64,000 nucleotides of DNA, taken from the sequence record MK327943.1, one strand, 5' to 3'. The notes under the pieces are model-generated. The model was not told the origin of the DNA. It worked only from the letters and a program-made list of their open reading frames with translations, and made no database searches. Made by a program: the position numbers and the translations under genes. The first letter of the stretch is position 1. Each line of letters starts with the position of its first letter. Source of the stretch: Escherichia phage vB_EcoM_G53. Shown here piece after piece: positions 3,666 to 62,342 of the stretch.

Positions 3666-5480
3666 GGACATCCATTCTTTACGAAGTTCTGAATCATCAC
3701 CCATCAACATTTCAAAGAGTTCTTTCCAATTTTCAGGAAGTTTAACTACGTCGTACACAGGGTTCTGAATCATTTCACGATATTCTGACTTTTCAAGGGA
3801 GCCTAATCCCTTGATGTATCTAATACTATGCTTAGGCAGTGTATCTTTAACTTCTTCATACTCAGCTACAGTATAAAACCATTTTTGAGTTTTGCCAATT
3901 TGTGCAATAATTACAGGCGTTTTAACAAAGCGAATACGTCCTTGTTCAAACAATTCAGGCCAATTACTAAAGAAAGCAAGCAAAGCCGGATAGATACTTC
4001 CAAGACCGTCGTGATCTGCATCGGTCATAATTGCAATATTATGATAGTTCGTATTCTCTGCCTTTTCACCAAGAATAAGACCTGTGATAGCACAGATATC
4101 AAAGAGCTCTTTGTTCTTCATCATATCAGCATATGACATACCCCAGCTATTCATCACCTTACCGCGTAATGGGAATCCACCGTGTAGTTCACGGTCACGA
4201 ACATCAATGAGATAACCAATTGCCGAATCACCTTCTGTTAAAAACAATGTCGTATCTGCATCTTTACCACATTGGTTAGCTTTAATATGCTTATGAACCT
4301 TAGCTTTAGTTGCCTTTTTAGCTGCTTTAGTTTCTGCAGCCTTTTCTGCTGCCAATTTACGAGCTAATGCTGCTTCAACAATAGGCATAATCAAGGCTTC
4401 GTTTTTAAGAAGCGCCTGAGCAATTTTCTTAGCATCTAATTGGATATGATTACGAATATCACCATACGTTGACGTTAAACGTTCTTTAGTCTGAGAATCA
4501 AAACGCATGTTGCTCATGTCTCTAATAAACATCAACATTGTGAGGCATTCTTTAACACGAGCTTTAGTGACTTCAATACCCTTATATTTCTTTTTAATAC
4601 CCGGTAAAAGATGTTCGCAGATATCGTCCATTACACATTCAACATGATGTCCACCATTTTTAGTATGGATGTTATTCACATAAGTTAAATGACGGAAGCC
4701 ATCTGGTGATGTTGTGAATGCTATAGAGACTTTATCATTTTCTTGAATGATGTTATCTTCACCAAATTGTTTAGCAAATCGTTTAAAATTACCATCAACC
4801 TTTTTACCATTAAATGTGAACTTGATATCAGGATAAACGACTGCCAATGTTTGAAGTCGGTCTAAAGTAATATCTAAATAAATTTGAGATAAATTATGCT
4901 CTTCAAATGAAGAGAAATCAGGAGTGAAGATTACTTTAGTGCCTTTACCTTTAGATTTCTTAGAAGACCATGATTTGTTTTCCATTCCGTTTGAACAGTT
5001 AACAGTGATTTCATTTTCGCCATCTGACGTGATGCCTGTAAACAACGTAGAGAAGATATTAGTTAAACTACTCCCGACGCCGTTCATACCACCAGTCTTG
5101 CGTTCAGAGTCATCACCAAAGTTACCACCGGCCTTTGGAATAGTCCAGGCTGCTACAGGCCCAGGAATTTGTTCACCCGTTTGGTCAGTAACTAAACCTT
5201 GAGGAATACCACGTCCGTTATCTTCCACCAAAACTTGATTATTTTTAATTTGCACATCAATTTTATTTGCAAACTTAAATGATGTACGAATAGCTTCATC
5301 AACCGAGTTGTCAATAATCTCATCGATTAATTTAACCAGACCAGGAACATATTCAACTTGTTGATATTTACCAAACAAAAAACGCTCATGTGCTTCTTTA
5401 GCAGAAGAACCAATATACATACCACTACGTTTCTTAATATGTTCTACATCTGACAATACCTTAATTTCATTTTTAATCAT
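3663..5480 (-). CDS. 39: DNA topoisomerase II large (ATPase, GyrB-like) subunit, unsplit gp39
   Basis: 605-aa ORF; GHKL ATPase and TOPRIM-like motifs (VEDNGRGIP, GGNFGDD); T4 synteny. Confidence 0.85.
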   Translation of the reverse strand: MIKNEIKVLSDVEHIKKRSGMYIGSSAKEAHERFLFGKYQQVEYVPGLVKLIDEIIDNSVDEAIRTSFKFANKIDVQIKNNQVLVEDNGRGIPQGLVTDQTGEQIPGPVAAWTIPKAGGNFGDDSERKTGGMNGVGSSLTNIFSTLFTGITSDGENEITVNCSNGMENKSWSSKKSKGKGTKVIFTPDFSSFEEHNLSQIYLDITLDRLQTLAVVYPDIKFTFNGKKVDGNFKRFAKQFGEDNIIQENDKVSIAFTTSPDGFRHLTYVNNIHTKNGGHHVECVMDDICEHLLPGIKKKYKGIEVTKARVKECLTMLMFIRDMSNMRFDSQTKERLTSTYGDIRNHIQLDAKKIAQALLKNEALIMPIVEAALARKLAAEKAAETKAAKKATKAKVHKHIKANQCGKDADTTLFLTEGDSAIGYLIDVRDRELHGGFPLRGKVMNSWGMSYADMMKNKELFDICAITGLILGEKAENTNYHNIAIMTDADHDGLGSIYPALLAFFSNWPELFEQGRIRFVKTPVIIAQIGKTQKWFYTVAEYEEVKDTLPKHSIRYIKGLGSLEKSEYREMIQNPVYDVVKLPENWKELFEMLMGDDSELRKEWMS

Positions 5481-7411: not shown

Positions 7412-7440
7412 ATAATATCAAAACCGGAGGAGAAGTAAAC
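7412..7440 (-). promoter_or_regulatory. early promoter with spacer/5'UTR inverted repeat
   Basis: minus strand GTTTAC, 17-nt spacer, TATTAT; arm ctcctccgg in the spacer is complementary to ccagaggag carrying the SD. Confidence 0.5.
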
Positions 7441-7444
7441 AACT

Positions 7445-7864
7445 TTATGCAAAAGATGCTGGACAATATTTTTTGATTTGGAACTCAGGAACTACCATGA
7501 ACTGTCCAGCGAAAACGATGTTATAAAGCTTAACACCATCTTCTACCCATTGGTCCGAAATAAAACCAGCAACTTGTTTCGTTGTCCATGGAGACCCGTC
7601 AGTTGCAGCAGCAATAGTAAATTCATGGTCTTTTACAACTAAAACAGACCTGCACAGTTTCCATTTGAACGCACGTTCTTCTGGCTCAATGAACTGGCTT
7701 TTAACGTAACCAATGTTACCATCGGCGTCACGAACTTTAACTTCGTTACGTCCAAAAACCGGATCACTCACAGAAAGAACTTCAACCAACTTCCCAGCAA
7801 CTTTAGAGCGAGAAGCATCCGATACGTGTACATAATCACCAATAGAGAGATTTGCAATATTCAT
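7445..7864 (-). CDS. MotB-like protein paralog (KOW-like N-terminus)
   Basis: 139-aa ORF; N-terminal IGDYVHVSDASRSKVAGKLVEV and shared C-terminal DQWVEDGVKLYNIVFAG with the next two ORFs; T4 motB neighbourhood. Confidence 0.45.
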   Translation of the reverse strand: MNIANLSIGDYVHVSDASRSKVAGKLVEVLSVSDPVFGRNEVKVRDADGNIGYVKSQFIEPEERAFKWKLCRSVLVVKDHEFTIAAATDGSPWTTKQVAGFISDQWVEDGVKLYNIVFAGQFMVVPEFQIKKYCPASFA

Positions 7865-7873
7865 AATAATTCC

Positions 7874-8371
7874 TTAAGCTTTACGAGGAGACACATAGCG
7901 AGTGATTTCAGATTCTTCAACAACTCGGAAGTCACCTAAGAATACAATATTGTATAGCTTTTTACCATCTTCAACCCATTGGTCGCTGATGAAGCCGCAC
8001 ATAGTATCAGTTTTGCTTGGATAACCGTATTCGTCGATGTAATCAAATTCTTTATCGGTTATAAATTCAACGCCTTTGCAAAGGGCCCATTTGAACTGTG
8101 TAGTAGGCTCAACGATATCGCTTGAAGCAAAGTGTGCAGGTACAACTTCTTCGCTTGAAGCAAATTGGACTCGTATATGTTTTTCCAGGAATTTAGGACT
8201 TACGTAAGCATACTGGGCATCTTGTCCGCCAAAACTGGGGATGATTCGAACTTTAACTTCTTTAACACGTCCCATGCCGTTAGTACGAAGCCCTGCTACT
8301 TCAACCAGACGACCTGCAGCTTTAGAACGAGAAGCAGGAGATACACGAAGGATTTCACCAATATTAATCAT
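7874..8371 (-). CDS. MotB-like protein paralog
   Basis: 165-aa ORF sharing N- and C-terminal motifs with 7445..7864 and 8436..8930. Confidence 0.45.
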   Translation of the reverse strand: MINIGEILRVSPASRSKAAGRLVEVAGLRTNGMGRVKEVKVRIIPSFGGQDAQYAYVSPKFLEKHIRVQFASSEEVVPAHFASSDIVEPTTQFKWALCKGVEFITDKEFDYIDEYGYPSKTDTMCGFISDQWVEDGKKLYNIVFLGDFRVVEESEITRYVSPRKA

Positions 8372-8403
8372 ATTTTTTTCTCTCTTTGTTTAAGTTGAAA
8401 TTC

Positions 8404-8433
8404 ATTATACTCCATCCATCCTTGGATGTAAAA
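8404..8433 (-). promoter_or_regulatory. early promoter, member of repeated promoter module
   Basis: minus strand TTTTAC, 18-nt spacer with palindromic core (atccaaggatggatggag), TATAAT. Confidence 0.45.
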
Positions 8434-8435
8434 CA

Positions 8436-8930
8436 TTAATTAAGAATATTAACTACTGCACTACGTGGAACAACACTAAAATCACCAGCATGAACAACGT
8501 TCAGAAGTTCAACACCGTCTTCAATCCACTGATCAGTTACCCATCCACTCACTGGACCTGCGAACGGACGTCGAATTGAAACAGCTTTACACAACAAATC
8601 AGTAGGCTCAATAGGCTTAATCAGAGTACCGTACATACAAGCGATATCCATATCAATACAGATGTCTTTAACGGGTTCTACTTCTTCAATCAACAGTTCA
8701 AAGTCGGTGCTTGGAAGGGCGGCAGTAGAAATTGTACCGTATGAATTTTTAATTTCTAAGAATAACCAAGGGCCTTCAGCTTGTTTGATGAAGTTAACAA
8801 TAGTGAAACTATTACCTTGAGTGGCGCCTAAAATTTCACAAAACTTTTCATAAGCTCGCACTGAAGCACCGTACCAGTTGATTTGTTTTTCGTCTTTCAG
8901 GATGTAAGTAGCCGTAGTATTGATGTTCAT
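8436..8930 (-). CDS. MotB-like protein paralog
   Basis: 164-aa ORF; C-terminal GWVTDQWIEDGVELLNVVHAGDF matches its two neighbours. Confidence 0.45.
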   Translation of the reverse strand: MNINTTATYILKDEKQINWYGASVRAYEKFCEILGATQGNSFTIVNFIKQAEGPWLFLEIKNSYGTISTAALPSTDFELLIEEVEPVKDICIDMDIACMYGTLIKPIEPTDLLCKAVSIRRPFAGPVSGWVTDQWIEDGVELLNVVHAGDFSVVPRSAVVNILN

Positions 8931-8962
8931 AATGTTTTTCCTGTTTGGTTAAGATAGATTCA

Positions 8963-8992
8963 TTATACTCCAACCGTCCTTGGTTGTAAACT
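8963..8992 (-). promoter_or_regulatory. early promoter, member of repeated promoter module
   Basis: minus strand GTTTAC, 18-nt spacer (aaccaaggacggttggag), TATAAT. Confidence 0.45.
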
Positions 8993-13454: not shown

Positions 13455-13506
13455 GATAGACCTCCATTTAAAGATAAGCCTATCATAACATGAGAGGAGG
13501 GAATGT

Positions 13507-13674
13507 AAACTACTTTTTAAGCTTTCCTACTAAAGGTCCATCAGGGCCAGGTTGTTCTAACATGAATAACGATGCTTTAAAAAGCAATGTTAACCCTTTC
13601 ACCATTCGATACCATGTCTCAAAGTCTTTTTCCTTGATTTCTAGTAAGAATTTCTCTTTAAATTTCTCTTTCAT
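13507..13674 (-). CDS. small hypothetical protein (55 aa), not in ORF track
   Basis: ATG overlaps the upstream stop as ATGA (13671..13674); ORF MKEKFKEKFLLEIKEKDFETWYRMVKG... Confidence 0.35.
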
Positions 13675-20365: not shown

Positions 20366-20394
20366 ATAATAACACAACTACTGGAGAAGTAAAC
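20366..20394 (-). promoter_or_regulatory. early promoter with 12-bp perfect inverted repeat spanning spacer and SD
   Basis: minus strand GTTTAC, 17-nt spacer, TATTAT; ctccagtagttg (20376..20387 region) pairs with caactactggag containing the SD. Confidence 0.55.
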
Positions 20395-34237: not shown

Positions 34238-35200
34238 TTATTTCCAAGTCAGTTCGCAGGTCAGTTGAAGAAGCATATACATAACATGTAATTCAATATT
34301 ACTTGCTAATCCATGAAACTTATTATTTTCGCCTGCAATTTCATAAAGCGAAATAATACTTTTACCTGGTGCAACTTTGTCATAACACTCAGAAACTAAT
34401 TTATCGATGAACCATGAATAATCAGCGGCATATTTTGGAGCTAACGCACGAAGCTGTTTGATATCTTTATTTTTCATTGCTTCTATGACATCATCTACCG
34501 TGCCACGATCATTGGTTACAATCGACAAAATACCTGCATCAAGAACACCTTTAGACGAGTACTGGTCTAATTGACCAATTGTACGTCGAAAGTCCGGGAA
34601 GTTCTTTTTAACCAGAGCTGCAACAACTTTCATATCAGCGATTTCGATATTTTCGTTCTTACAGATTTCAACCATGCGATGAATCATTTTCTTCATCATT
34701 GAGATTTTATCTTCTTCGGTTGGACGTCCGAATTCGATAACTCGACAACGACTACGTAACGGTTCGATAATTCCATCGATGTTGTTGGCAGTAATAATAA
34801 TAGAACAGTTACTAGAGAATTCTTCCATGAATGTACGAAGGTGACGTTGTGATTCAGCGAGGCCACTACGGTCAAATTCATCAATAACAATAACTTTAGG
34901 CTTGCCTTCCATTGAGACTGAACGAGCGAATGCAGTTAACGGACCGCGCACAAAATCAATCTTACAATCAGAACCGTTGACGAACATCATTTCGGCATTG
35001 ATATCATTACATAATGCTTTTGCTACGGTTGTTTTACCGGTACCAGGAGATGGAGAGTGTAAAATAATATGAGGAAGTTTTCCTTTAGATACTAAAGACT
35101 TGAATGTTTCATGGTCATACGCAGGCAGAATACATTCGTCAATGGAAGAAGGACGATATTTCTGTTCTAGAATGTGTTCTTTGGAATTGATAGTAATCAT
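34238..35200 (-). CDS. 44: clamp loader ATPase subunit gp44 (RFC-like AAA+)
   Basis: 320-aa ORF; Walker [11 protein letters not shown], Walker [12 protein letters not shown]-like RSRC motif. Confidence 0.9.
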
Positions 35201-42607: not shown

Positions 42608-42670
42608 GATATTTTCCTCATTTTAAGACGATAGGAAGATAATAACATGTCTTCCTATCGTTGTACATTA

Positions 42671-47198: not shown

Positions 47199-47604
47199 TA
47201 TTTTTCCTTTCATCGATTAAATATGCAATGCCAAATACAATACATGTAATAAAACCTGTGATACAGATAGAAACCAACAATACTGTACCAAAGAACCAAA
47301 TCAAGTTATCTTTGGTAGTTTGTTTGATATCCATCTCACGAATTTCTATAGCTATCGTATCACCTTTATTCAGAAGCGTATAAAACGATGGCGATACACG
47401 CCTGTCAAAAACTCGTCCTTGCTCATCTTTATAGACTGCAATAAATTCTAATTTAGAATATTTTCCTGTAGATTGGCCTGAGATTAATTCCACTACCTCC
47501 ACAGGAATTACTTTAGTTTCCATGTAAGTATTCTGGCTGTTCCAAATGAATGGAATAATAGCAAAAACTAAAGCTGCGATAAAACAACGAAGGCTATATC
47601 TCAT
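47191..47604 (-). CDS. membrane protein
   Basis: 137-aa ORF with N- and C-terminal hydrophobic helices. Confidence 0.45.
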   Translation of the reverse strand: MRYSLRCFIAALVFAIIPFIWNSQNTYMETKVIPVEVVELISGQSTGKYSKLEFIAVYKDEQGRVFDRRVSPSFYTLLNKGDTIAIEIREMDIKQTTKDNLIWFFGTVLLVSICITGFITCIVFGIAYLIDERKNNV

Positions 47605-47909
47605 TATAATGTTCTCTCAAATTTGTGGAAGCATTTACGGCATTTCAATTTCAAGTTATCAGTGGTCCAGTTAACCAATTGGACTTGGATAGTTCCACAT
47701 TCCGGACACGGGTGTTTTGCTGCCGATTTGGCAGCATTTTCACGTCGTTCAACCATTTTCATTATTTCGTTCCATGCCGGAGGAACAAACTCTTCTTCAC
47801 CGTGGATTTTATCTCGCTGAACAAATTCAATCTTTGAACTATCGTCAATAAACTTAACCAAGCCATGATTAGTGCTCATATCAATATCCTCTAAAAGACG
47901 TAGTTTCAT
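47604..47909 (-). CDS. zinc-ribbon protein
   Basis: 101-aa ORF with CPECG...CRKC. Confidence 0.45.
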   Translation of the reverse strand: MKLRLLEDIDMSTNHGLVKFIDDSSKIEFVQRDKIHGEEEFVPPAWNEIMKMVERRENAAKSAAKHPCPECGTIQVQLVNWTTDNLKLKCRKCFHKFERTL

Positions 47910-48856
47910 TATAACACCTCAATGGCATTTCGTAAACCATCCGCTTTCGCATTCAGAGCTTTTAACGATTTAGTTTGTTCTGCAATCTGGGCTTCGACTT
48001 CTTTCAGACGAGATTTGAGATATTCGCGTTCTTCTCTTAAGTTATCAACTTTTTCTGCTTTAGGCTCTTTAATAGGCTTAGGCTTATACTCGTTAGGGTT
48101 CTTCAACTTAATTTGAATGCGAGAACTGTATAACATTGAACCATTATCTTCGGTTTCATCATACATTTCTACCACGTCCATGATTCTTAACATCATGCGA
48201 AGTTTATAAGACAGCGAACGAATGGTTTTATTGTGCTTCTTAATTTCTTCAGCTTTCATGGTGCCGAGATTACGCGAGTAATAATAAGGAACCTGAATAT
48301 CAATTGATAATGATGCGGTACCATTACCGGTTGGTTTGAACACTGCAGTAACCCAATCTTTAGCATGAACTGTATTTGTACGATCATCGCCGCCTGTGAA
48401 TAATTTACGAGAATGTTTAAAAAGCATATTCACTTGGTTATTGAATTCACAAGCAAATTTATCAGCAAATTTAGTTTCAGGAATGGTAGTTAACCAATCA
48501 GCCAAATGAGTCTTTTTAACATCATTAACAATAGTGAATTCAACCAAATCGGTTTTAGATGTCACAGATTTAATAAAGCTCGGCTTCATAAAGTTTTTAA
48601 TGTTATCGCGAGCTACAGTAGAAGATAATAAACGAGAACGTTTGAACCATTGAAGCAGCGTCCCTAATGAATGAGAATATGCATTTTGAGTATCTTTACA
48701 GATATGATTTTCTTGGCCTGTGTATGTAAGAAAATCACGAAGAATACTATAAACCACACCTTTATGTGGAACATCAGTCCAAGCACCAGTAGCACGTTGA
48801 GCGTGAGCGTTAGCGATAAGACCGGCAAAGTATTCAATGTAATGTGAACGTGTCAT
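47909..48856 (-). CDS. hypothetical protein with C-terminal coiled coil (tandem trio member)
   Basis: 315-aa ORF; C-terminal heptad-rich region; own promoter copy upstream. Confidence 0.45.
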   Translation of the reverse strand: MTRSHYIEYFAGLIANAHAQRATGAWTDVPHKGVVYSILRDFLTYTGQENHICKDTQNAYSHSLGTLLQWFKRSRLLSSTVARDNIKNFMKPSFIKSVTSKTDLVEFTIVNDVKKTHLADWLTTIPETKFADKFACEFNNQVNMLFKHSRKLFTGGDDRTNTVHAKDWVTAVFKPTGNGTASLSIDIQVPYYYSRNLGTMKAEEIKKHNKTIRSLSYKLRMMLRIMDVVEMYDETEDNGSMLYSSRIQIKLKNPNEYKPKPIKEPKAEKVDNLREEREYLKSRLKEVEAQIAEQTKSLKALNAKADGLRNAIEVL

Positions 48857-48884
48857 AATATTTTCCTCTCGTTAAGATAAATTC

Positions 48885-48914
48885 ATTATACTCCAACCAT
48901 CCTTGGTTGTAAAC
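48885..48914 (-). promoter_or_regulatory. early promoter, repeated module with palindromic spacer
   Basis: minus strand GTTTAC, 18-nt spacer aaccaaggatggttggag, TATAAT. Confidence 0.5.
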
Positions 48915-48918
48915 TGAT

Positions 48919-49878
48919 TTATGATTTTAACGCATTCATTGCGTTAAAAAGTTTAGAATACTGCAACTGGAGATTCGTTACAACACTTTGAGCATCACGA
49001 AGCTTAGCTTGTGCTTTGTCAAGTTCAACAGACAGTTGGTCCATAGTGGCCTTGATTTGATTGTAATGGTAATCTTCGACCGGAAGAAGGTCATTAGAAA
49101 CATTTAGTTTTACTGCAGACAGTTTGCACACATTTGGCGAACCTTTAAACATTGATTTACCCGAAGTAGAATAAGCACTTAGGACTTCGGCCTGTTCAAT
49201 TGGGGTCCCAGTAAGCGATGCTTCAAACAATGCATTTTCCTTTTTAAGATTTTGATAATATTCGGAGTCTTTGTGCCACCATGGCGCCGGAACCTTTTTA
49301 CCAATAGATACACGAGCCTGGATAGCGATATGGCCCTTATTCTTGATAGGGTTGATAATATTAAGCTCACGAGAATAAATTGCTTTAATCTGGTGAATAT
49401 TATCACCTAAAACTTCCAATGCTTGGTGGAATACACGAGCAACATTATCATTCTTAGGTTTATACGTAAGAGTGAACTCATTCTCACTGATAACCATGAT
49501 TTCCAACTTATCGTAAGTATATTTCAAATGTTTCATGTTAATTGCTTGAGAACGAATACGAGAAGCAATGGCCATCAGATTGTTAAGGTTATTCCGGAAC
49601 TGCTTAGCGAAATATTGTCCTTCACCGCCAATACAAAAATTACGAAGTTTCTGTTTGGCCAATAAACGGCTGAACTCGCCATTTTTAATGAACTCTTTAA
49701 CGGGTGTGTTAGTAACGCATTCAAATTGAGTAAACTTACGAGAATTAATCCCATAATATGAACAGATTTCCTCAATCTCTTCAGGAGTCTTTACAGGCAT
49801 ACGGATAGGATTAGGTCCTGGAGTATATGCGTTCGAGGTAAATTCTTTGATAAGTTCTCTACGTGTAATAAAAGCCAT
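48919..49878 (-). CDS. hypothetical protein with C-terminal coiled coil (tandem trio member)
   Basis: 319-aa ORF; C-terminal coiled coil; own promoter copy. Confidence 0.45.
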   Translation of the reverse strand: MAFITRRELIKEFTSNAYTPGPNPIRMPVKTPEEIEEICSYYGINSRKFTQFECVTNTPVKEFIKNGEFSRLLAKQKLRNFCIGGEGQYFAKQFRNNLNNLMAIASRIRSQAINMKHLKYTYDKLEIMVISENEFTLTYKPKNDNVARVFHQALEVLGDNIHQIKAIYSRELNIINPIKNKGHIAIQARVSIGKKVPAPWWHKDSEYYQNLKKENALFEASLTGTPIEQAEVLSAYSTSGKSMFKGSPNVCKLSAVKLNVSNDLLPVEDYHYNQIKATMDQLSVELDKAQAKLRDAQSVVTNLQLQYSKLFNAMNALKS

Positions 49879-49904
49879 TTTATATTCCTCATGTTGAAAA
49901 ATTT

Positions 49905-49934
49905 ATTATACTCCAACCATCCTTGGTTGTACAT
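49905..49934 (-). promoter_or_regulatory. early promoter, repeated module
   Basis: minus strand ATGTAC, 18-nt spacer aaccaaggatggttggag, TATAAT. Confidence 0.45.
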
Positions 49935-50929
49935 CATTCCTTAAGAAGTTTTACTACTTGAATAAGATTAGCTCGTTCTGTTTTATTTTTACCGTTTAAG
50001 CCTGCTAATCGTGAGATTTCATCGTCAGTCTGTTGAATAGTTACATTAAGTTCGTTAATCAAAGCTTCAAAGTATTTGATTTGCTCAGCATGTTTTGATT
50101 CAAATTTCTGAACCGGAATAACGTCTTGGTTCAGTTCATCAATAAGGTCTTTAAGAGCATCTTCTTGGTTGATATCATATTCAACTTCTTTTATTTCTTC
50201 AACGAGCTCGTCTTTATATCTAACGTCTTTTAGTCCTGGAGCTGGTCCTGAAATCTCTTCTTTAAGAGTACAAACATACCCAATACGGTATCCAATGCCG
50301 TCTCGCTTGATATCAACTTCGTCGATAAATCCACAATGTTTAAGCCCGGAGCCGATTATGTCAAAATATCCTTGACGTCGTCCTTCAAACGTTACACGAA
50401 CTACTAAGACAGTTTTACCTGCAACCTTTTGAAGCTCACATTTATAAAAGTCAGTTGAACCTGAATAACGTGGATGAGTTTTAAAGTTCATCTGACGATC
50501 TAGGCCCATTTGTAAGCGTGCTGTTACGGCCATAAAACGTGTTTGGTTCTCGTTAAGATGAGCAACAATCCATTTCAAAGGCATTTTACACTGTTCACGG
50601 CCGAACAAATCAGTACGTCCTAGATTACGCAGGATGTTGTTAGAGTTAATCATCGACAGAACGTTAAGTTTATTCAGCGCGCTGAAGATTCCATCAGCCA
50701 TTGATTTTCCATAACCTTTACACGCTTTAATAAGTGCTCGCGGCAGATTAGTATAGATTTCAGACGGCATATGAAAATCAAATTTACTAGTCAGTAATTG
50801 ATGAACTTGGATAGCAATTTGCTCATAATTAAGTGCTCTGCGATCGTTATGGTCTTTAAACCATACTTTAATCTGTGAAGCACATAAACCGTTAATTTCA
50901 TGTTTTACCGCATCAGATGTAATGCTCAT
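49934..50929 (-). CDS. hypothetical protein with C-terminal coiled coil (tandem trio member)
   Basis: 331-aa ORF; C-terminal coiled coil. Confidence 0.45.
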   Translation of the reverse strand: MSITSDAVKHEINGLCASQIKVWFKDHNDRRALNYEQIAIQVHQLLTSKFDFHMPSEIYTNLPRALIKACKGYGKSMADGIFSALNKLNVLSMINSNNILRNLGRTDLFGREQCKMPLKWIVAHLNENQTRFMAVTARLQMGLDRQMNFKTHPRYSGSTDFYKCELQKVAGKTVLVVRVTFEGRRQGYFDIIGSGLKHCGFIDEVDIKRDGIGYRIGYVCTLKEEISGPAPGLKDVRYKDELVEEIKEVEYDINQEDALKDLIDELNQDVIPVQKFESKHAEQIKYFEALINELNVTIQQTDDEISRLAGLNGKNKTERANLIQVVKLLKE

Positions 50930-50964
50930 AACTATTTCCTCAGATTGAATTGGAACTCAAAACC

Positions 50965-50988
50965 ATTATAACCCGTCCTTGGGTAAAG
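50965..50988 (-). promoter_or_regulatory. degenerate copy of the repeated promoter module
   Basis: TATAAT retained but the spacer is shortened to about 12 nt (CTTTAC-ccaaggacgggt-TATAAT). Confidence 0.3.
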
Positions 50989-50991
50989 CGT

Positions 50992-51519
50992 TTATGCGTG
51001 AACCGTCTTTAAACGTTCTTCAAATTTCCGAAGAGTACTAATACGTTCTGCTTTCTGTTTTGTATAGTTTGCAATACGTTCTGAAGTGAGAGCGTATCGT
51101 TCGTTTACTGTTTCTTTCATGAAGTCAGGGATTTCACGAGAAGCTTTAATTTCATCAAACTTATCGAGTACTGCCTGGTCTTCAGCAATTAAATTTTCGT
51201 ACATCTCGATATCTTTCTTGATGAAGTCGATATCTTCCTGGGTTACTTTGGATAAACGAGATGCTTTATCCTTTTTGTACTGCTCGTTAGTTTCACGAGA
51301 CCAGAATAATGTACGTTTTTTGTTAGTGTTTTTGTAGACTTCCACAATTCCAACTGAATCGATGATAACAATCCAATTCCAGCGAGATTTGAAAATCTGA
51401 CCTCCGTCCACGGTAATCTCGTTACCATAAGCAACGTCATTAAAGAACTTACTTTGTGCTTCAGATTTAAATTTACCGTCGTTATAATTTACCAGGTTGA
51501 AAATATCTTTAGCGTTCAT
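50992..51519 (-). CDS. hypothetical protein
   Basis: 175-aa ORF downstream of a GTTTAC/TATTAT promoter. Confidence 0.45.
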   Translation of the reverse strand: MNAKDIFNLVNYNDGKFKSEAQSKFFNDVAYGNEITVDGGQIFKSRWNWIVIIDSVGIVEVYKNTNKKRTLFWSRETNEQYKKDKASRLSKVTQEDIDFIKKDIEMYENLIAEDQAVLDKFDEIKASREIPDFMKETVNERYALTSERIANYTKQKAERISTLRKFEERLKTVHA

Positions 51520-51577
51520 GTTTTACCTCCAGTAGTTGATAGGTCTATAATAACATAACCATAGACCTTGTAAACAA

Positions 51578-52003: not shown

Positions 52004-53005
52004 TTATTTCAGTAAAGTTACTTCAGAGATTTCCTCCCAACCATCTTTATCAGTTGAAATAAAATCTGCTACATAAAGAGCGGTACGTAATGATACATTG
52101 CGAAGACGAGATACATTAGCCTTCATCCAGGACAATGCTTTGTACGTTTCTGCATCCGTCAGGCCACGTTTCTGCATCATGTCAGTAGATAATATTACAT
52201 CTTCAACTCGAACCATAATCTCTTCATTAGAGTGTACTCCAAGGTCGAGATACACTGAACGAGATACTAAAGCTTGAAGGTGTGGAGCAAGTTTCGAACC
52301 CCGTTCTAACTCTTTATCGATATCAACGTTTGTAATGAAAACGATAGTACCTTCAAACTCAAATTCTTTATCAATACCCTTATCCTCGAGATAAGATGAC
52401 GCAGTGCTCCAACAAACTTTGCGTTTATCTCCGGTATCTAATGCTGCTTTAAGAAGGTTCAGGATGTCCATATCTGAGAATACGTCAACGTCATCGATTA
52501 AGAGAACGCTGTCTGCATCACGGTTGAGCCAAAGTTGTTCGTAAAGGCCAATACCAGAGATTTTACCATTAATGCTTTTGTATTTGATGAAACCATTATC
52601 ATTAGCATTATTAAGTGCTTTATCCAGAGAATACGTCTTACCAATACCAGCTGCACCTGAAATAATGAGTGAACGAATTTTGCCATCGATAATACCATTC
52701 GTCATCATGTTCATTACTTTAAAGCGTTTGTTGATACGGGTTTTCATATCTTCAGTGCTTTCAACAACTGCAACTGGTGATGTCTCAACTCCTTCCATTA
52801 CGATGTCTGATTTGAAGACCCATACTCCACGTTCAGAACCATCAATAATAACGAAAATTTTACCATCACCTAAGTGGGAACATTCAGGATTAAGCTTTGC
52901 CGGGAACCAGGTCTTTGTGGCAACATAAGAACCAGAGATTTCGTTATTACGATAGATACCTTTTTTGATTTGAACGTTGAACATTTTATTCTCCAATTTA
53001 CTCAT
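52004..53005 (-). CDS. P-loop ATPase (AAA-like)
   Basis: 333-aa ORF; Walker A GAAGIGKT, Walker B LLIDDVD. Confidence 0.5.
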   Translation of the reverse strand: MSKLENKMFNVQIKKGIYRNNEISGSYVATKTWFPAKLNPECSHLGDGKIFVIIDGSERGVWVFKSDIVMEGVETSPVAVVESTEDMKTRINKRFKVMNMMTNGIIDGKIRSLIISGAAGIGKTYSLDKALNNANDNGFIKYKSINGKISGIGLYEQLWLNRDADSVLLIDDVDVFSDMDILNLLKAALDTGDKRKVCWSTASSYLEDKGIDKEFEFEGTIVFITNVDIDKELERGSKLAPHLQALVSRSVYLDLGVHSNEEIMVRVEDVILSTDMMQKRGLTDAETYKALSWMKANVSRLRNVSLRTALYVADFISTDKDGWEEISEVTLLK

Positions 53006-58785: not shown

Positions 58786-59324
58786 TCTTTTATTTCCAGT
58801 AGTTTATTTGATTTAAGGTAATTAGCCTTTTCTAGGACTTCAGAAGCATATTTACTTCCGGCACTTGTCTTCCATCCCGCATTATATGAGGATATAGCTT
58901 TTCTTATATCCCCGTTATGTATATTTAACCAATAAGAAAATTCGATATAAGCCCATCTGGCTGAATTAGACCGCTTAGATAGCATTTTCTTAATTTGGGC
59001 ATCAGTCATATTATAACCAAGTTGGTTAATTCTTGCCCTCATTGTTGGTAGATAATTTTGGAACATTCCATACGCATGGTGACCTTTCTTATCTTTAAGA
59101 TTAATACCGGCAGATGATTCCTGCCATAGTATTGCGGCCATTATGTATCCAAGTCCTTTCTTATGCATATTTTCATGCGTTTTAAATTTTCCATCCTTAG
59201 AAAACTGTTCCCCAAACTGATAAGCATAATTCAAGTTATCGAGTTGGACATTACTAAAAGTATGCTCGGAGCTATGTGCTGATAACGAAAGAGCAAATAG
59301 ACCAGCGAGTAGTGCTTTTCTCAT
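58782..59324 (-). CDS. periplasmic lytic transglycosylase-like protein (SLT domain)
   Basis: 180-aa ORF; signal peptide; WQESS catalytic-Glu context and AYGMFQ motif. Confidence 0.5.
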   Translation of the reverse strand: MRKALLAGLFALSLSAHSSEHTFSNVQLDNLNYAYQFGEQFSKDGKFKTHENMHKKGLGYIMAAILWQESSAGINLKDKKGHHAYGMFQNYLPTMRARINQLGYNMTDAQIKKMLSKRSNSARWAYIEFSYWLNIHNGDIRKAISSYNAGWKTSAGSKYASEVLEKANYLKSNKLLEIKE

Positions 59325-62012: not shown

Positions 62013-62342
62013 TTATACTCTAGGCTTTTGAGCTTGTTTGGTATTGGATTCCCATGCGGCTTTGGTAATTTTGTTAGCGGCATAACCAAAGGCATTAGAT
62101 AGAACACCTTTAGAGTTGAATACATCCAATCCAATAAGTACACCGGCTGTGTTAAATTTAGGAGCAAAGTACGCATTAGTTTTAGAAAGAACTTTTTTCA
62201 ATTCAGGGTCTTGAACCAAGCCATCAAAAACGCCTTTACTATTTACTTTGTATGTTACTTTGGGATTTTTACCTTCTTCGATAGCAGCTTTCTGTTCCGC
62301 AGATAATGTAACTTCAGTGATAAACTCCTGATATGTTTTCAT
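62013..62342 (-). CDS. internal protein (IP) with capsid-targeting leader
   Basis: 109-aa ORF beginning MKTYQEFITE, the T4 IP leader consensus; AAGGA SD. Confidence 0.6.
   Translation of the reverse strand: MKTYQEFITEVTLSAEQKAAIEEGKNPKVTYKVNSKGVFDGLVQDPELKKVLSKTNAYFAPKFNTAGVLIGLDVFNSKGVLSNAFGYAANKITKAAWESNTKQAQKPRV

Follow-up and report, generated by a model that had tools for sequence, protein, structure and literature searches.

A repeated early-promoter cassette with a covarying spacer hairpin in the nrdC region of a T-even phage

Why should near-identical early promoters, repeated in front of different accessory genes, carry a palindrome between their −35 and −10 boxes? An earlier note on Escherichia phage vB_EcoM_G53 (MK327943.1) had described three consecutive genes for coiled-coil proteins, each behind a copy of one palindromic-spacer module, and had suggested that promoter-plus-gene cassettes were duplicated or exchanged as units. 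We analysed this locus within a 64,000-nucleotide stretch of the genome (the window). The region shares 98.6% identity with mar005P1-type phages of Mosigvirus, a relative of T4.

The nrdC.3–nrdC.6 array and its promoter cassettes

The region follows the T4 gene order 49-nrdC-nrdC.11, and the three reading frames are present at 47909–50929, all on the minus strand, encoding 315, 319 and 331 aa. The 315-aa early accessory gene (47909–48856) is a homologue of T4 nrdC.3 (56% identity; phrog_1435; PF26897), and the 331-aa gene (49934–50929) is a homologue of T4 nrdC.6 in the PF26899 family, about 29–32% identical to T4-type nrdC.6 proteins. Between them, the product of the 319-aa gene (48919–49878), a divergent homologue of T4 nrdC.5, matches DUF7235 over its full length (PF23882, E 2.8e-123; 411.7 bits, Pfam gathering cut-off 30); T4 nrdC.5 is itself a DUF7235 protein (420.6 bits, E 5.3e-126). 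The upstream neighbour of the trio (50992–51519, minus strand) encodes a 175-aa nrdC.8 homologue, 83% identical to that of T4, with a promoter at 51547–51574. The locus is the nrdC.3–nrdC.6 accessory early-gene array of a T-even phage and is probably a counter-defence island. T4 uses nrdC.5 to counter Dsr1 defence (Srikant et al. 2022, PMC9391042). The 319-aa protein shares its Pfam family over the full length and its position in the array, but is only about 25% identical to it, and its anti-Dsr1 role is putative.

To call the trio coiled-coil proteins overstated a property of their tails. All three reach their highest value on a crude a/d-heptad score within the last 40–50 residues, above the 95th percentile of shuffles each time (10.25 vs 8.25, 10.5 vs 7.75 and 8.75 vs 7.5). 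AlphaFold models of two of the three predict single long C-terminal helices (274–314 and 266–318), with pLDDT values of 48 and 41, too low for fold comparison. In the 315-aa protein, the heptad-like helix is the last ~45 aa.

The repeated GTTTAC-N18-TATAAT module was confirmed in four minus-strand copies. The 30-mer GTTTACAACCAAGGATGGTTGGAGTATAAT is exact at 48885–48914 and recurs with two mismatches at 49905–49934, one at 8962–8991 and three at 8404–8433, with no match in 100 shuffled sequences. The first canonical copy (48885–48914) heads the 315-aa gene with a −35 TTTACA (48908–48913), a 17-nt spacer and a −10 TATAAT (48885–48890); its spacer holds the hairpin CAACCA-AGGA-TGGTTG (48894–48909; loop C-AAGGAU-G), followed by GGAG. 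Spacer and −10 are identical in the second (49905–49934; hairpin 49914–49929), whose −35, TGTACA, overlaps the TGA stop of the 331-aa gene. The third (8962–8991, placed one nucleotide away at 8963–8992 by the earlier note) has the loop AAGGAC and lies upstream of a 164-aa gene (8436–8930, minus strand); the fourth (8404–8433) has a compensated stem, CATCCA/TGGATG, and lies upstream of a 165-aa gene (7874–8371, minus strand). Both genes belong, as had been proposed, to the motB family (PF17613; E 6.5e-38 and 7.5e-9, respectively), of which a third paralogue, at 7445–7864, stands without a cassette (PF17613, E 1.3e-24). The motB genes that carry the same cassette are ~40 kb from the nrdC trio.

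We took as a T4-type sigma-70 early promoter a −35 (G)TTTAC(A), a spacer of 16–18 nt and a −10 TATAAT. A consensus scan ranked 48913–48885 as the region's best sigma-70 match (11/12, 17-nt spacer) and scored 49933–49905 at 10/12 with the same spacing; the copies at 8404 and 8962 also fit this promoter type. The copies at 48885–48914 and 49905–49934 are near-consensus early promoters by sequence, and their activity is predicted. At the orthologous site, one GenBank record carries a promoter annotation. Copies resemble each other only between about −36 and +12 of the promoter, the coding flanks being dissimilar, and the layout is stop codon, promoter, Shine-Dalgarno and ATG. T4 early promoters follow a GTTTAC/TATAAT pattern, with UP, −35, TGn and −10 elements (Hinton 2010, PMC2988021). 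The cassette shares their GTTTAC-type −35, 17-nt spacer, TATAAT and A/T-rich upstream region, and its start region (..CTATC..) is common to other window promoters; however, the canonical window copies have no TGn extended −10, whereas in T4 cassette variants the TGn comes from the 3' arm of the hairpin (TGTGG-TATAAT, GATGG-TATAAT).

The copy upstream of the 331-aa gene (about 50965–50990, minus strand; CTTTACCCAAGGACGGGTTATAAT) had been described as degenerate, with a shortened spacer. The spacer is indeed short, about 11 nt from TTTAC(C) to TATAAT, but the copy is a separate, conserved variant: its hairpin, ACCC-AAGGAC-GGGT, abuts the TATAAT (50965–50970), and it is orthologous to the T4 nrdC.8|nrdC.7 element TATACC-AAGGAT-GGTATAAT, with conserved flanks, which led us to reject decay from the canonical module. 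With about 11 nt of spacer, no properly spaced −35 and no TGn, it falls outside our promoter definition.

A covarying hairpin with an invariant loop

Is the palindrome mere spacer filler? We found it to be a conserved, covarying feature, a hairpin of 5–7 bp whose C-AAGGA(U/C)-G loop is invariant. Among 12 distinct variants from Tequatrovirus, Mosigvirus and Dhakavirus, 93.1% of stem cells were paired, against 63% after shuffling (0/500), although the sample of independent variants is small, and shared descent or conversion links many of the 12, inflating the shuffle statistics. Sliding the alignment of these variants reduced paired cells to 19–44%. Both sides had changed in four of the six stem pairs, and C7, AAGGA and G14 were invariant in 12/12. 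The placement of the hairpin against the −10 comes in four registers: a gap of 4 nt, a gap of 5 nt, no gap, and a 2-nt overlap.

The pattern TTTAC-N4-AAGGA-N5-GGAGTATAAT, which imposes no complementarity, had 23 hits, spread over 21 contig stretches of viral and metagenome origin, and N4 and N5 were complementary in every one, two G.U variants among them. When the pattern was relaxed, there were 142 matches, whose stem lengths are bimodal (1–3 bp in 92, 4–6 bp in 50). T-even cassettes make up most of the long-stem class; six matches, representing four distinct sequences, come from contigs where T4-like ORFs are few or absent. Where AAGGAY lies beside a −10 in T4 and the window, the stem is 4–6 bp at all nine intergenic promoter sites and 0–1 bp at coding sites, except for T4 vs.1 (62151), with 6 bp.

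The stem itself amounts to about −6 to −9 kcal/mol, and when the whole region is folded the hairpin is weak (z −0.3 to −1.5). No Rfam family matched it, and the intergenic regions contained nothing like an intrinsic terminator, in which a U tract follows a G+C-rich stem. The invariant loop, the covarying stems and the four registers suggest that the hairpin is selected as a single-stranded structure whose loop is read by sequence, most likely in read-through RNA. A hairpin with an invariant GGA loop in the spacer of an early promoter has apparently not been described before.

Distribution and exchange of the cassette

T4 carries four cassettes, upstream of rIIA.1, nrdC.4, nrdC.3 and nrdC.7; one stands before a 30.5-like gene in another T-even phage, and Mosigvirus genomes have the cassette in 3–4 places each. 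A cassette resembles the other copies in its own genome more closely than its orthologues in other genera: the rIIA.1 and nrdC.4 copies of T4 both have CCACA/TGTGG arms, and the nrdC.3, nrdC.5L and motB copies of the window all have AACCA/TGGTT. Gene orders mapped for T4, the window, Dhakavirus and others place the breakpoints of gene content between genera at cassettes. From these comparative maps, the ~45-bp cassettes would serve at the DNA level as portable homology for recombination or gene conversion, which would explain both the homogenisation within genomes and the gain and loss of nrdC.3/.4/.5/.6/.7 and motB paralogues. Copy-copy recombination is predicted to release mini-circles of 1,020 bp (48885/49905) and 558 bp (8404/8962).

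Such exchange recalls the modular shuffling of T4-type phages by promoter-early stem-loops (PeSLs; Arbiol et al. 2010, PMC2839356; Comeau et al. 2014, PMC4122927), of which Comeau et al. mark (degraded) examples at about 43–51 kb of PST/T4, the nrdC region. Like PeSLs, the cassette is intergenic, lies in a hyperplastic region, is repeated in the genome, combines an early sigma-70 promoter and a stem-loop in a short cassette with Shine-Dalgarno and ATG at its 3' end, and sits at insertion, deletion and replacement boundaries between related phages, where PeSLs are proposed as recombination linkers. PeSL stem-loops, however, are described as terminators just upstream of the promoter, with GGGG...CCCC in RB49 and 'AGNA-loop-TCNT' in PST/T4 (PMC2839356, PMC4122927), whereas the stem-loop of the cassette occupies the spacer or runs into the −10, is free of a U tract, and pairs covarying stems with an invariant AAGGAY loop. 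No PeSL-type terminator stem-loop precedes the −35, merely 0–4 nt separating it from the upstream stop codon. The idea that cassettes are exchanged as units is already published as PeSL shuffling, and the spacer hairpin is apparently the new part.

Candidate functions of the hairpin and alternative explanations

What could the hairpin do? Since it is upstream of the cassette's own transcription start, it would be present only in read-through transcripts from upstream promoters; read-through from the nrdC.8-homologue promoter (51547–51574) would include all three hairpins of the trio. Its most likely role there would be to bind a protein, so that polycistronic RNA is marked or regulated differently from promoter-proximal RNA. 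On balance, we think it rather probable that the module as a whole is a portable promoter cassette with a selected read-through RNA hairpin, candidate CsrA and RegB signals, and recombination homology.

The best sequence match for the hairpin appears to be a CsrA-type GGA hexaloop site, also a Shine-Dalgarno mimic; high-affinity hairpins of this class, bound by CsrA or RsmE, have an ANGGAN hexaloop and include those of the glgC leader and the CsrB repeats. The consensus derived for CsrA by SELEX, RUACARGGAUGU, places GGA in a hexaloop that AC/GU closes (PMC7652899). The loop C-AAGGA(U/C)-G corresponds to an ARGGAU hexaloop closed by C-G in 12/12 variants, another base pair lies outside the closing one, the T4 copies ACAAGGAUGU match every fully conserved SELEX position, and CsrB has comparable units of the ACACC-AGGAU-GGUGU type. 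Most cassette copies have a second GGA, 8 nt and about 30–36 nt downstream. On the other hand, the SELEX stems are mostly 4 bp or fewer against 5–7 bp in the cassette, and the hairpin lies upstream of its own transcription start. CsrA sites usually have a second GGA 10–63 nt away that overlaps the Shine-Dalgarno; in the cassettes such a GGA is present for the 315-, 319-, 331- and 164-aa genes and absent for the 165-aa gene, T4 nrdC.3 and T4 nrdC.7; bridging from hairpin to Shine-Dalgarno is therefore not general, because the Shine-Dalgarno sequences of these last three have no GGA. CsrB is reported to be unusually stable in T4-infected cells (PMC9697503), and our literature search found no report tying CsrA to T4 mRNAs. 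That T-even cassettes embed a high-affinity CsrA-type hairpin, so that read-through but not promoter-proximal early RNA binds CsrA, is a tentative proposal to which we give a low probability.

In the canonical copies, the GGAG-UAUAAU that follows the hairpin is a plausible RegB/S1 cleavage site, which would separate the cistrons. RegB has the single-stranded 11-mer consensus GGAGRAYARAA (Durand et al. 2006, PMC1702504), and the cassette sequence GGAGUAUAAUG/A agrees with it at 8–9 of 11 positions, with a mismatch at position 10 or at 11, the latter an important position. Like RegB/S1 sites, the cassette offers an intergenic GGAG with an A/U-rich heptamer free of C in early read-through RNA; it differs in that its GGAG is upstream of the Shine-Dalgarno and not within it, in that two of the four registers (T4 nrdC.4, rIIA.1 and nrdC.7 types) have no GGAG, and in that the GGAU class of its loop is mostly RegB-resistant in T4 (28/30 intergenic motifs; Durand et al., PMC1702504).

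Could the spacer instead have no function of its own, being part of a strong early promoter that T4 recombination copies or converts while quasi-palindrome correction keeps its symmetry? The near-identity of copies within a genome and their divergence between genera would follow, as would homology limited to about 45 bp. PeSL work has shown that such cassettes recombine (PMC2839356), and templated quasi-palindrome repair in DNA could yield covariation without RNA selection. Neutral drift, however, would strike the loop as often as the stem, whereas C-AAGGAY-G is invariant in at least three genera while stems change with compensation, and the hairpin is kept in four registers, even in the window copy that has neither −35 spacing nor TGn; we consider this explanation unlikely. 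A processing role seems equally improbable, in which a cut by RegB/S1 at the GGAG, or by RNase E at the AU-rich UAUAAU, falls immediately 3' of the hairpin and separates the cistrons, leaving a hairpin that caps and stabilises the upstream message. RegB does cut intergenic GGAG motifs in early RNA (PMC1702504), GGAGUAUAAU(A/G) fits 8–9/11 of its consensus, and the hairpin is always immediately 5' of the AU-rich −10, but a stabiliser needs no invariant loop, the GGAG is missing from the registers named above, a stem of 5–7 bp is a weak exonuclease barrier, and there is no terminator-like U tract. Least probable of all is a double-stranded operator at which a dimeric phage or host regulator switches accessory promoters: although the spacer is a typical repressor site, the arms are inverted repeats and only certain accessory genes stand behind the cassette, asymmetry marks the invariant centre AAGGAT while the symmetric arms vary and covary, the opposite of a dimer-contact pattern; the sense strand has G.T wobble pairs, and the distance of the palindrome to −10 and −35 varies by up to 7 nt.

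A further alternative, already raised in the earlier note, concerns the genes: the trio may be paralogues duplicated with their promoters as complete cassettes. Profile comparison identifies nrdC.3 and nrdC.4 as clear paralogues (hhalign probability 98%, E 1e-13), and since each has its own hairpin cassette (HP) in T4, the order HP-nrdC.4-HP-nrdC.3 fits duplication of a promoter-plus-gene unit. A probable relationship of nrdC.5 to both (51–86%, E 5e-6 to 2e-4; reciprocal best out-of-family HMM hits) is weak but consistent, and the motB array shows the same pattern. Pairwise BLASTP among the three window proteins, however, found no similarity, and a link of nrdC.6 to the others is unproven and only suggestive (51% over 70 columns at best against the pooled profile, otherwise below 6%). 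Cassette similarity moreover ends at the promoter, and the same cassette heads unrelated genes, namely the motB family in the window, rIIA.1 in T4 and the 30.5-like gene in another T-even phage, which argues that movement or conversion of the promoter is independent of the downstream gene. Promoters also appear to be gained independently of genes, because the nrdC.6L|nrdC.5L cassette is missing from that junction in T4 and Dhakavirus. Paralogy of nrdC.3 and nrdC.4 and breakpoints at modules speak for part of the original idea, and joint duplication of the whole trio is possible but doubtful.

If the hairpin is inert, the finding is one more example of a PeSL-type promoter cassette. If, as in the reading we prefer, it is a read-through RNA signal, a cassette of ~45 bp would combine a promoter, a protein site present only in read-through RNA, a possible RegB site and a recombination patch. 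CsrA binding, if it occurs, could set the translation or stability of accessory counter-defence genes by transcript type, and the hairpins could titrate CsrA during takeover, as a phage-borne analogue of the CsrB/CsrC sponge units. The cassette would then offer a handle on whether infection engages the host Csr system, and on how polycistronic and promoter-proximal copies of one T4 early gene are treated differently. It would also explain how T-even phages insulate and shuffle their variable early host-range genes, including the anti-Dsr1 gene nrdC.5.

The repeated cassette and the genes it heads

Four copies of the 30-mer GTTTAC-AACCAAGGATGGTTGGAG-TATAAT, with 0–3 mismatches, lie on the minus strand of the window (48885–48914, 49905–49934, 8962–8991 and 8404–8433); 100 shuffles gave no match. 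Thus, the repeated promoter that an earlier note had described is a real, non-random feature. Two copies lie ahead of the genes for the 315- and 319-aa proteins and two ahead of motB-family genes (PF17613), confirming that the module also precedes two MotB-like paralogs. A consensus scan scored the promoter of the 315-aa gene at 11/12 and that of the 319-aa gene at 10/12, both with 17-nt spacers. Likeness among the copies is confined to about −36 to +12. Among phage records, 242 contain the canonical module, which occupies 3–4 places per Mosigvirus genome and 1–2 per Dhakavirus genome.

Between the genes, the consensus scan detected no site resembling a terminator, which rules out an intrinsic terminator, and inspection of the cassette sequences ruled out a MotA box or middle promoter, there being no TGCTT at −30. 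CCAAGG fits a StyI-type site (CCWWGG), but a restriction-site explanation was rejected: the motif is missing from T4 CCACAAGG and from TATCAAGG variants, and the DNA of T-even phages is modified.

The region shares 98.6% identity with Mosigvirus phages of the mar005P1/JK45 type, and the genes around it run as in T4, from gene 49 via nrdC to nrdC.11; all genes of interest lie on the minus strand. Of these, the 315-aa ORF (47909–48856) is a homologue of T4 nrdC.3 (56% identity), the 319-aa ORF (48919–49878) is DUF7235 over its full length (PF23882, E 2.8e-123), and the 331-aa ORF (49934–50929) is an nrdC.6 homologue with ~29–32% identity to T4-type nrdC.6 proteins. T4 nrdC.5 is also DUF7235 (E 5.3e-126), with an identity to the 319-aa protein of only ~25%. 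The three protein families are restricted to T-even phages: large homology searches returned 33, 19 and 4 clusters, from close T-even relatives only, and HMMER, run exhaustively on 1.8 billion representatives with the 319-aa query, returned 3 proteins. A protein-guided locus search of IMG/VR yielded only 7 loci. We found functional information on only one of these genes, T4 nrdC.5, which lets infection proceed again in cells that bear the defence gene Dsr1 (PMC9391042).

Several neighbouring features deserve mention. An early-promoter match on the minus strand (47908–47936; TTTACG, 17 nt, TG-TATAAT, 10/12) falls within the final codons of the gene for the 315-aa protein and would drive the overlapping nrdC.2-like gene (47604–47909). 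A third motB-family paralogue (7445–7864, minus strand, 139 aa, PF17613 E 1.3e-24) directly follows a 165-aa gene without a cassette, so that the window has an array of three motB genes, compared with motB.2/motB.1/motB in T4. A further uncharacterised accessory gene of the nrdC island, the nrdC.10 homologue (52004–53005, minus strand, 333 aa, 78% identity to T4 nrdC.10), has a Walker A motif, GAAGIGKT, around which it weakly matches AAA/STAND-NTPases and clamp-loader-like proteins, and also gives a weak HTH_37 match.

A covarying hairpin in the promoter spacer

In T4, the palindromic spacer recurs at the nrdC.5–nrdC.4 junction (GTTTACTTTG-CCACA-AGGA-TGTGG-TATAAT), the nrdC.4–nrdC.3 junction (TTTAA-AGCCA-AGGA-TGGCT-CGGAGTATAAA) and the nrdC.8–nrdC.7 junction (TTTA-TACCA-AGGA-TGGTA-TAAT), and a fourth copy, ahead of rIIA.1, is almost identical to that of nrdC.4. 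The window copy ahead of the 331-aa gene (about 50965–50990; TTTACCC-AAGGAC-GGGT-TATAAT), previously taken to be degenerate, is instead the orthologue of the T4 nrdC.8–nrdC.7 element, with conserved flanks. In all compared copies the AAGGA(T/C) loop and the C-G pair that closes it do not change, and the outer stem varies with compensation. Across 12 distinct variants, which are few and related by descent and whose pairing statistics overstate independence, standard pairs occupy 93% of cells, compared with 63% after column shuffling (0/500 reaching the observed value) and 19–44% with a slid partner. Both sides have changed in four of the six stem pairs, and the covariation pattern is clear despite the few related variants. 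Rfam, at permissive thresholds, gave no relevant match to the hairpin.

To guard against selection bias, we made three checks without imposed complementarity. A scan of IMG/VR and JGI metagenomes for TTTAC-N4-AAGGA-N5-GGAGTATAAT yielded 23 matches in 21 stretches, and N4 and N5 were complementary in all of them, with G.U pairing on the sense strand in two variants. A looser pattern with variable gaps gave 142 matches whose stems were bimodal (1–3 bp in 92, 4–6 bp in 50). The long stems were mostly T-even cassettes; six, representing four distinct sequences, came from contigs with few or no T4-like ORFs, one of them a possible copy in a distant T4-like contig. When AAGGAY beside a −10-like hexamer was examined in T4 and the window, stems were 4–6 bp at 9/9 intergenic promoter sites and 0–1 bp at coding sites, with the exception of T4 vs.1 (62151, 6 bp).

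The vs.1 hairpin (TTTCT-AAGGAT-GGAAA; window 59188–59203, minus strand; T4 62135–62150) lies inside the coding sequence and has the same loop as the cassette, conserved in both phages; the resemblance may be fortuitous, or this may be one more copy of the element, here within a gene. An IMG/VR contig, L059 (IMGVR_UViG_3300022841_000177), distantly T4-like with proteins 29–50% identical to those of T4, carries an intergenic TTTAC-TTC-AAGGAT-GAAG-...-TATAAT at 4714–4742, flanked by a dsbA-like gene and an ORF with 34% identity to window ORF 34238–35200. It could be a distant instance of the hairpin-in-promoter design or a chance match; stems as long occur in ~4% of background matches.

Protein relatedness and the shuffling of gene order

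Are the cassettes and their genes duplicated as units? Pairwise BLASTP among the 315-, 319- and 331-aa proteins found no similarity, and hhalign, which had no power on the shallow alignments of the homology searches, became informative once divergent homologues were added from the fetched loci. By sequence comparison nrdC.3 and nrdC.4 are clearly paralogous (BLASTP down to 5e-8; hhalign 98% probability, E 1e-13, >200 columns). The alignment of nrdC.5 with nrdC.3/nrdC.4 is collinear (51–86% probability, E 5e-6 to 2e-4), and these are each other's best out-of-family HMM matches. For nrdC.6, hhalign gave at most a suggestive 51%, against the pooled profile only and over a 70-column motif (hLS..A...LrNF ... 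A.RL); a link to the other families is otherwise unsupported. Thus, the duplication of promoter plus gene proposed by the earlier note holds for part of the array, nrdC.3/nrdC.4, but is not the whole story because unrelated genes are headed by the same cassette. Its description of three coiled-coil proteins applies to the tails and not to whole proteins: heptad periodicity of the last 40–50 residues exceeded shuffled controls in 3/3 proteins. AlphaFold2 confidence was too low for use (pLDDT 40.7 for the 319-aa family, 48.2 for the 315-aa family); in both of these low-confidence models the C-terminal tail is a single long helix.

T4 nrdC.6 (8067–8894 of the T4 stretch, 275 aa) terminates in ...KFSDYLD*, whereas in close relatives (L018–L021) ~20 extra residues follow in another frame (…DDEIFRLSGLSSKAKSEREKLIKIVDLLKS), a heptad-like tail also present in the window 331-aa protein; a frameshift appears to have truncated the reference T4 nrdC.6. 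The nrdC.4 of L018 is broken into two ORFs (193 and 158 aa).

Gene-order differences between genera fall at the cassettes (HP). The nrdC order is.8-HP-.7-.6-.5-HP-.4-HP-.3 in T4,.8-HP-.6L-HP-.5L-HP-.3 in the window and.8-HP-.6-.5-HP-.4-.2 in Dhakavirus (JS98 and relatives), and the gene 30.x region of another T-even phage also has the cassette. Non-orthologous copies within a phage share the same stem (T4 rIIA.1 and nrdC.4; window motB, nrdC.3 and nrdC.5L), and orthologous copies in other genera have different stems. We considered whether the window nrdC.5L–nrdC.3 cassette combines the two flanking cassettes of T4; the sequences allow such a hybrid but do not distinguish it from simple orthology with the T4 nrdC.4–nrdC.3 copy, and this idea was not retained.

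Such evolutionary behaviour is as described for PeSLs (promoter-early stem-loops), the cassettes through which T4-type phages shuffle modules (PMC2839356; PMC4122927), and the PeSL authors had earlier drawn (degraded) PeSLs around nrdC in PST/T4 (PMC4122927). However, the present cassette lacks a terminator stem-loop upstream of −35, a defining PeSL feature, and is for this reason filed as a putative variant, PeSL-like at the DNA level, rather than as a canonical member.

A second class of early-type promoters on the minus strand (7412–7439, 13482–13509, 20366–20393, 42639–42667 and 51547–51574; fold z-scores −2.2 to −5.4) has a strong inverted repeat straddling the −10, with its 5′ arm in the spacer and its 3′ arm in the 5′ UTR, often over the Shine-Dalgarno sequence (e.g., CTCCAGTAGTTG ... 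CAACTACTGGAG at 20366). The ribosome-binding site would be sequestered in read-through RNA and not in promoter-initiated RNA. T4 dexA–motB.2, motB.1–motB and motB–cef show the same straddling arrangement, and these repeats may correspond to the PeSL stem-loops in Comeau et al. (2014). The promoters at 20366–20393 and 51547–51574 have the 3′ arm and start region ...CTATCAACTACTGGAG in common and form another repeated module, distinct from the GTTTAC-N18-TATAAT cassette.

Anatomy of the hairpin and candidate readers of its loop

What is the hairpin for? An invariant but asymmetric centre between varying symmetric arms marks a hairpin whose loop is read by sequence, not a dimeric operator. Selection on the hairpin is not tied to promoter geometry, since its position against the −10 box differs among copies (four registers: upstream by 4 nt or by 5 nt, directly adjacent, or with a 2-nt overlap) and it is retained in the window copy that lost workable −35 spacing. 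Where the hairpin adjoins or overlaps the box, its 3′ arm provides an extended −10 with its TGn. Transcripts that start at the cassette itself begin downstream of the hairpin, so that only read-through RNA can contain it; RNA from the promoter at 51547–51574, for example, would span all three hairpins. From this arrangement we infer a putative RNA element that tells polycistronic from promoter-proximal messages.

CsrA and RegB/S1 are candidate readers on sequence resemblance. SELEX gave RUACARGGAUGU as the CsrA consensus, its GGA lying in a hexaloop that AC/GU closes, and ANGGAN hexaloops are recognised by RsmE (PMC7652899). Consistent with CsrA as a putative reader of the loop, the cassette core is C-AAGGAU-G (T4 copies ACAAGGAUGU), and E. 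coli CsrB has units such as ACACC-AGGAU-GGUGU. However, the cassette stems are longer than those of most SELEX ligands and several downstream Shine-Dalgarno sequences have no second GGA. We found no literature connecting CsrA with T4 mRNA; one omics paper reports CsrB to be unexpectedly stable in T4 infection. RegB/S1, whose site is GGAGRAYARAA (PMC1702504), is a putative reader 3′ of the hairpin: GGAG-UAUAAU fits 8–9/11 positions in the canonical copies but is absent from two cassette variants. Cutting by RegB at the loop GGAU itself is unlikely because 28/30 intergenic GGAU motifs of T4 resist the enzyme (PMC1702504).

Known biology accounts for most of the feature: the early promoters of T4, cassettes of the PeSL type and the variable accessory array at nrdC. 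What is new is a covarying GGA-loop hairpin within the promoter, with a putative function.
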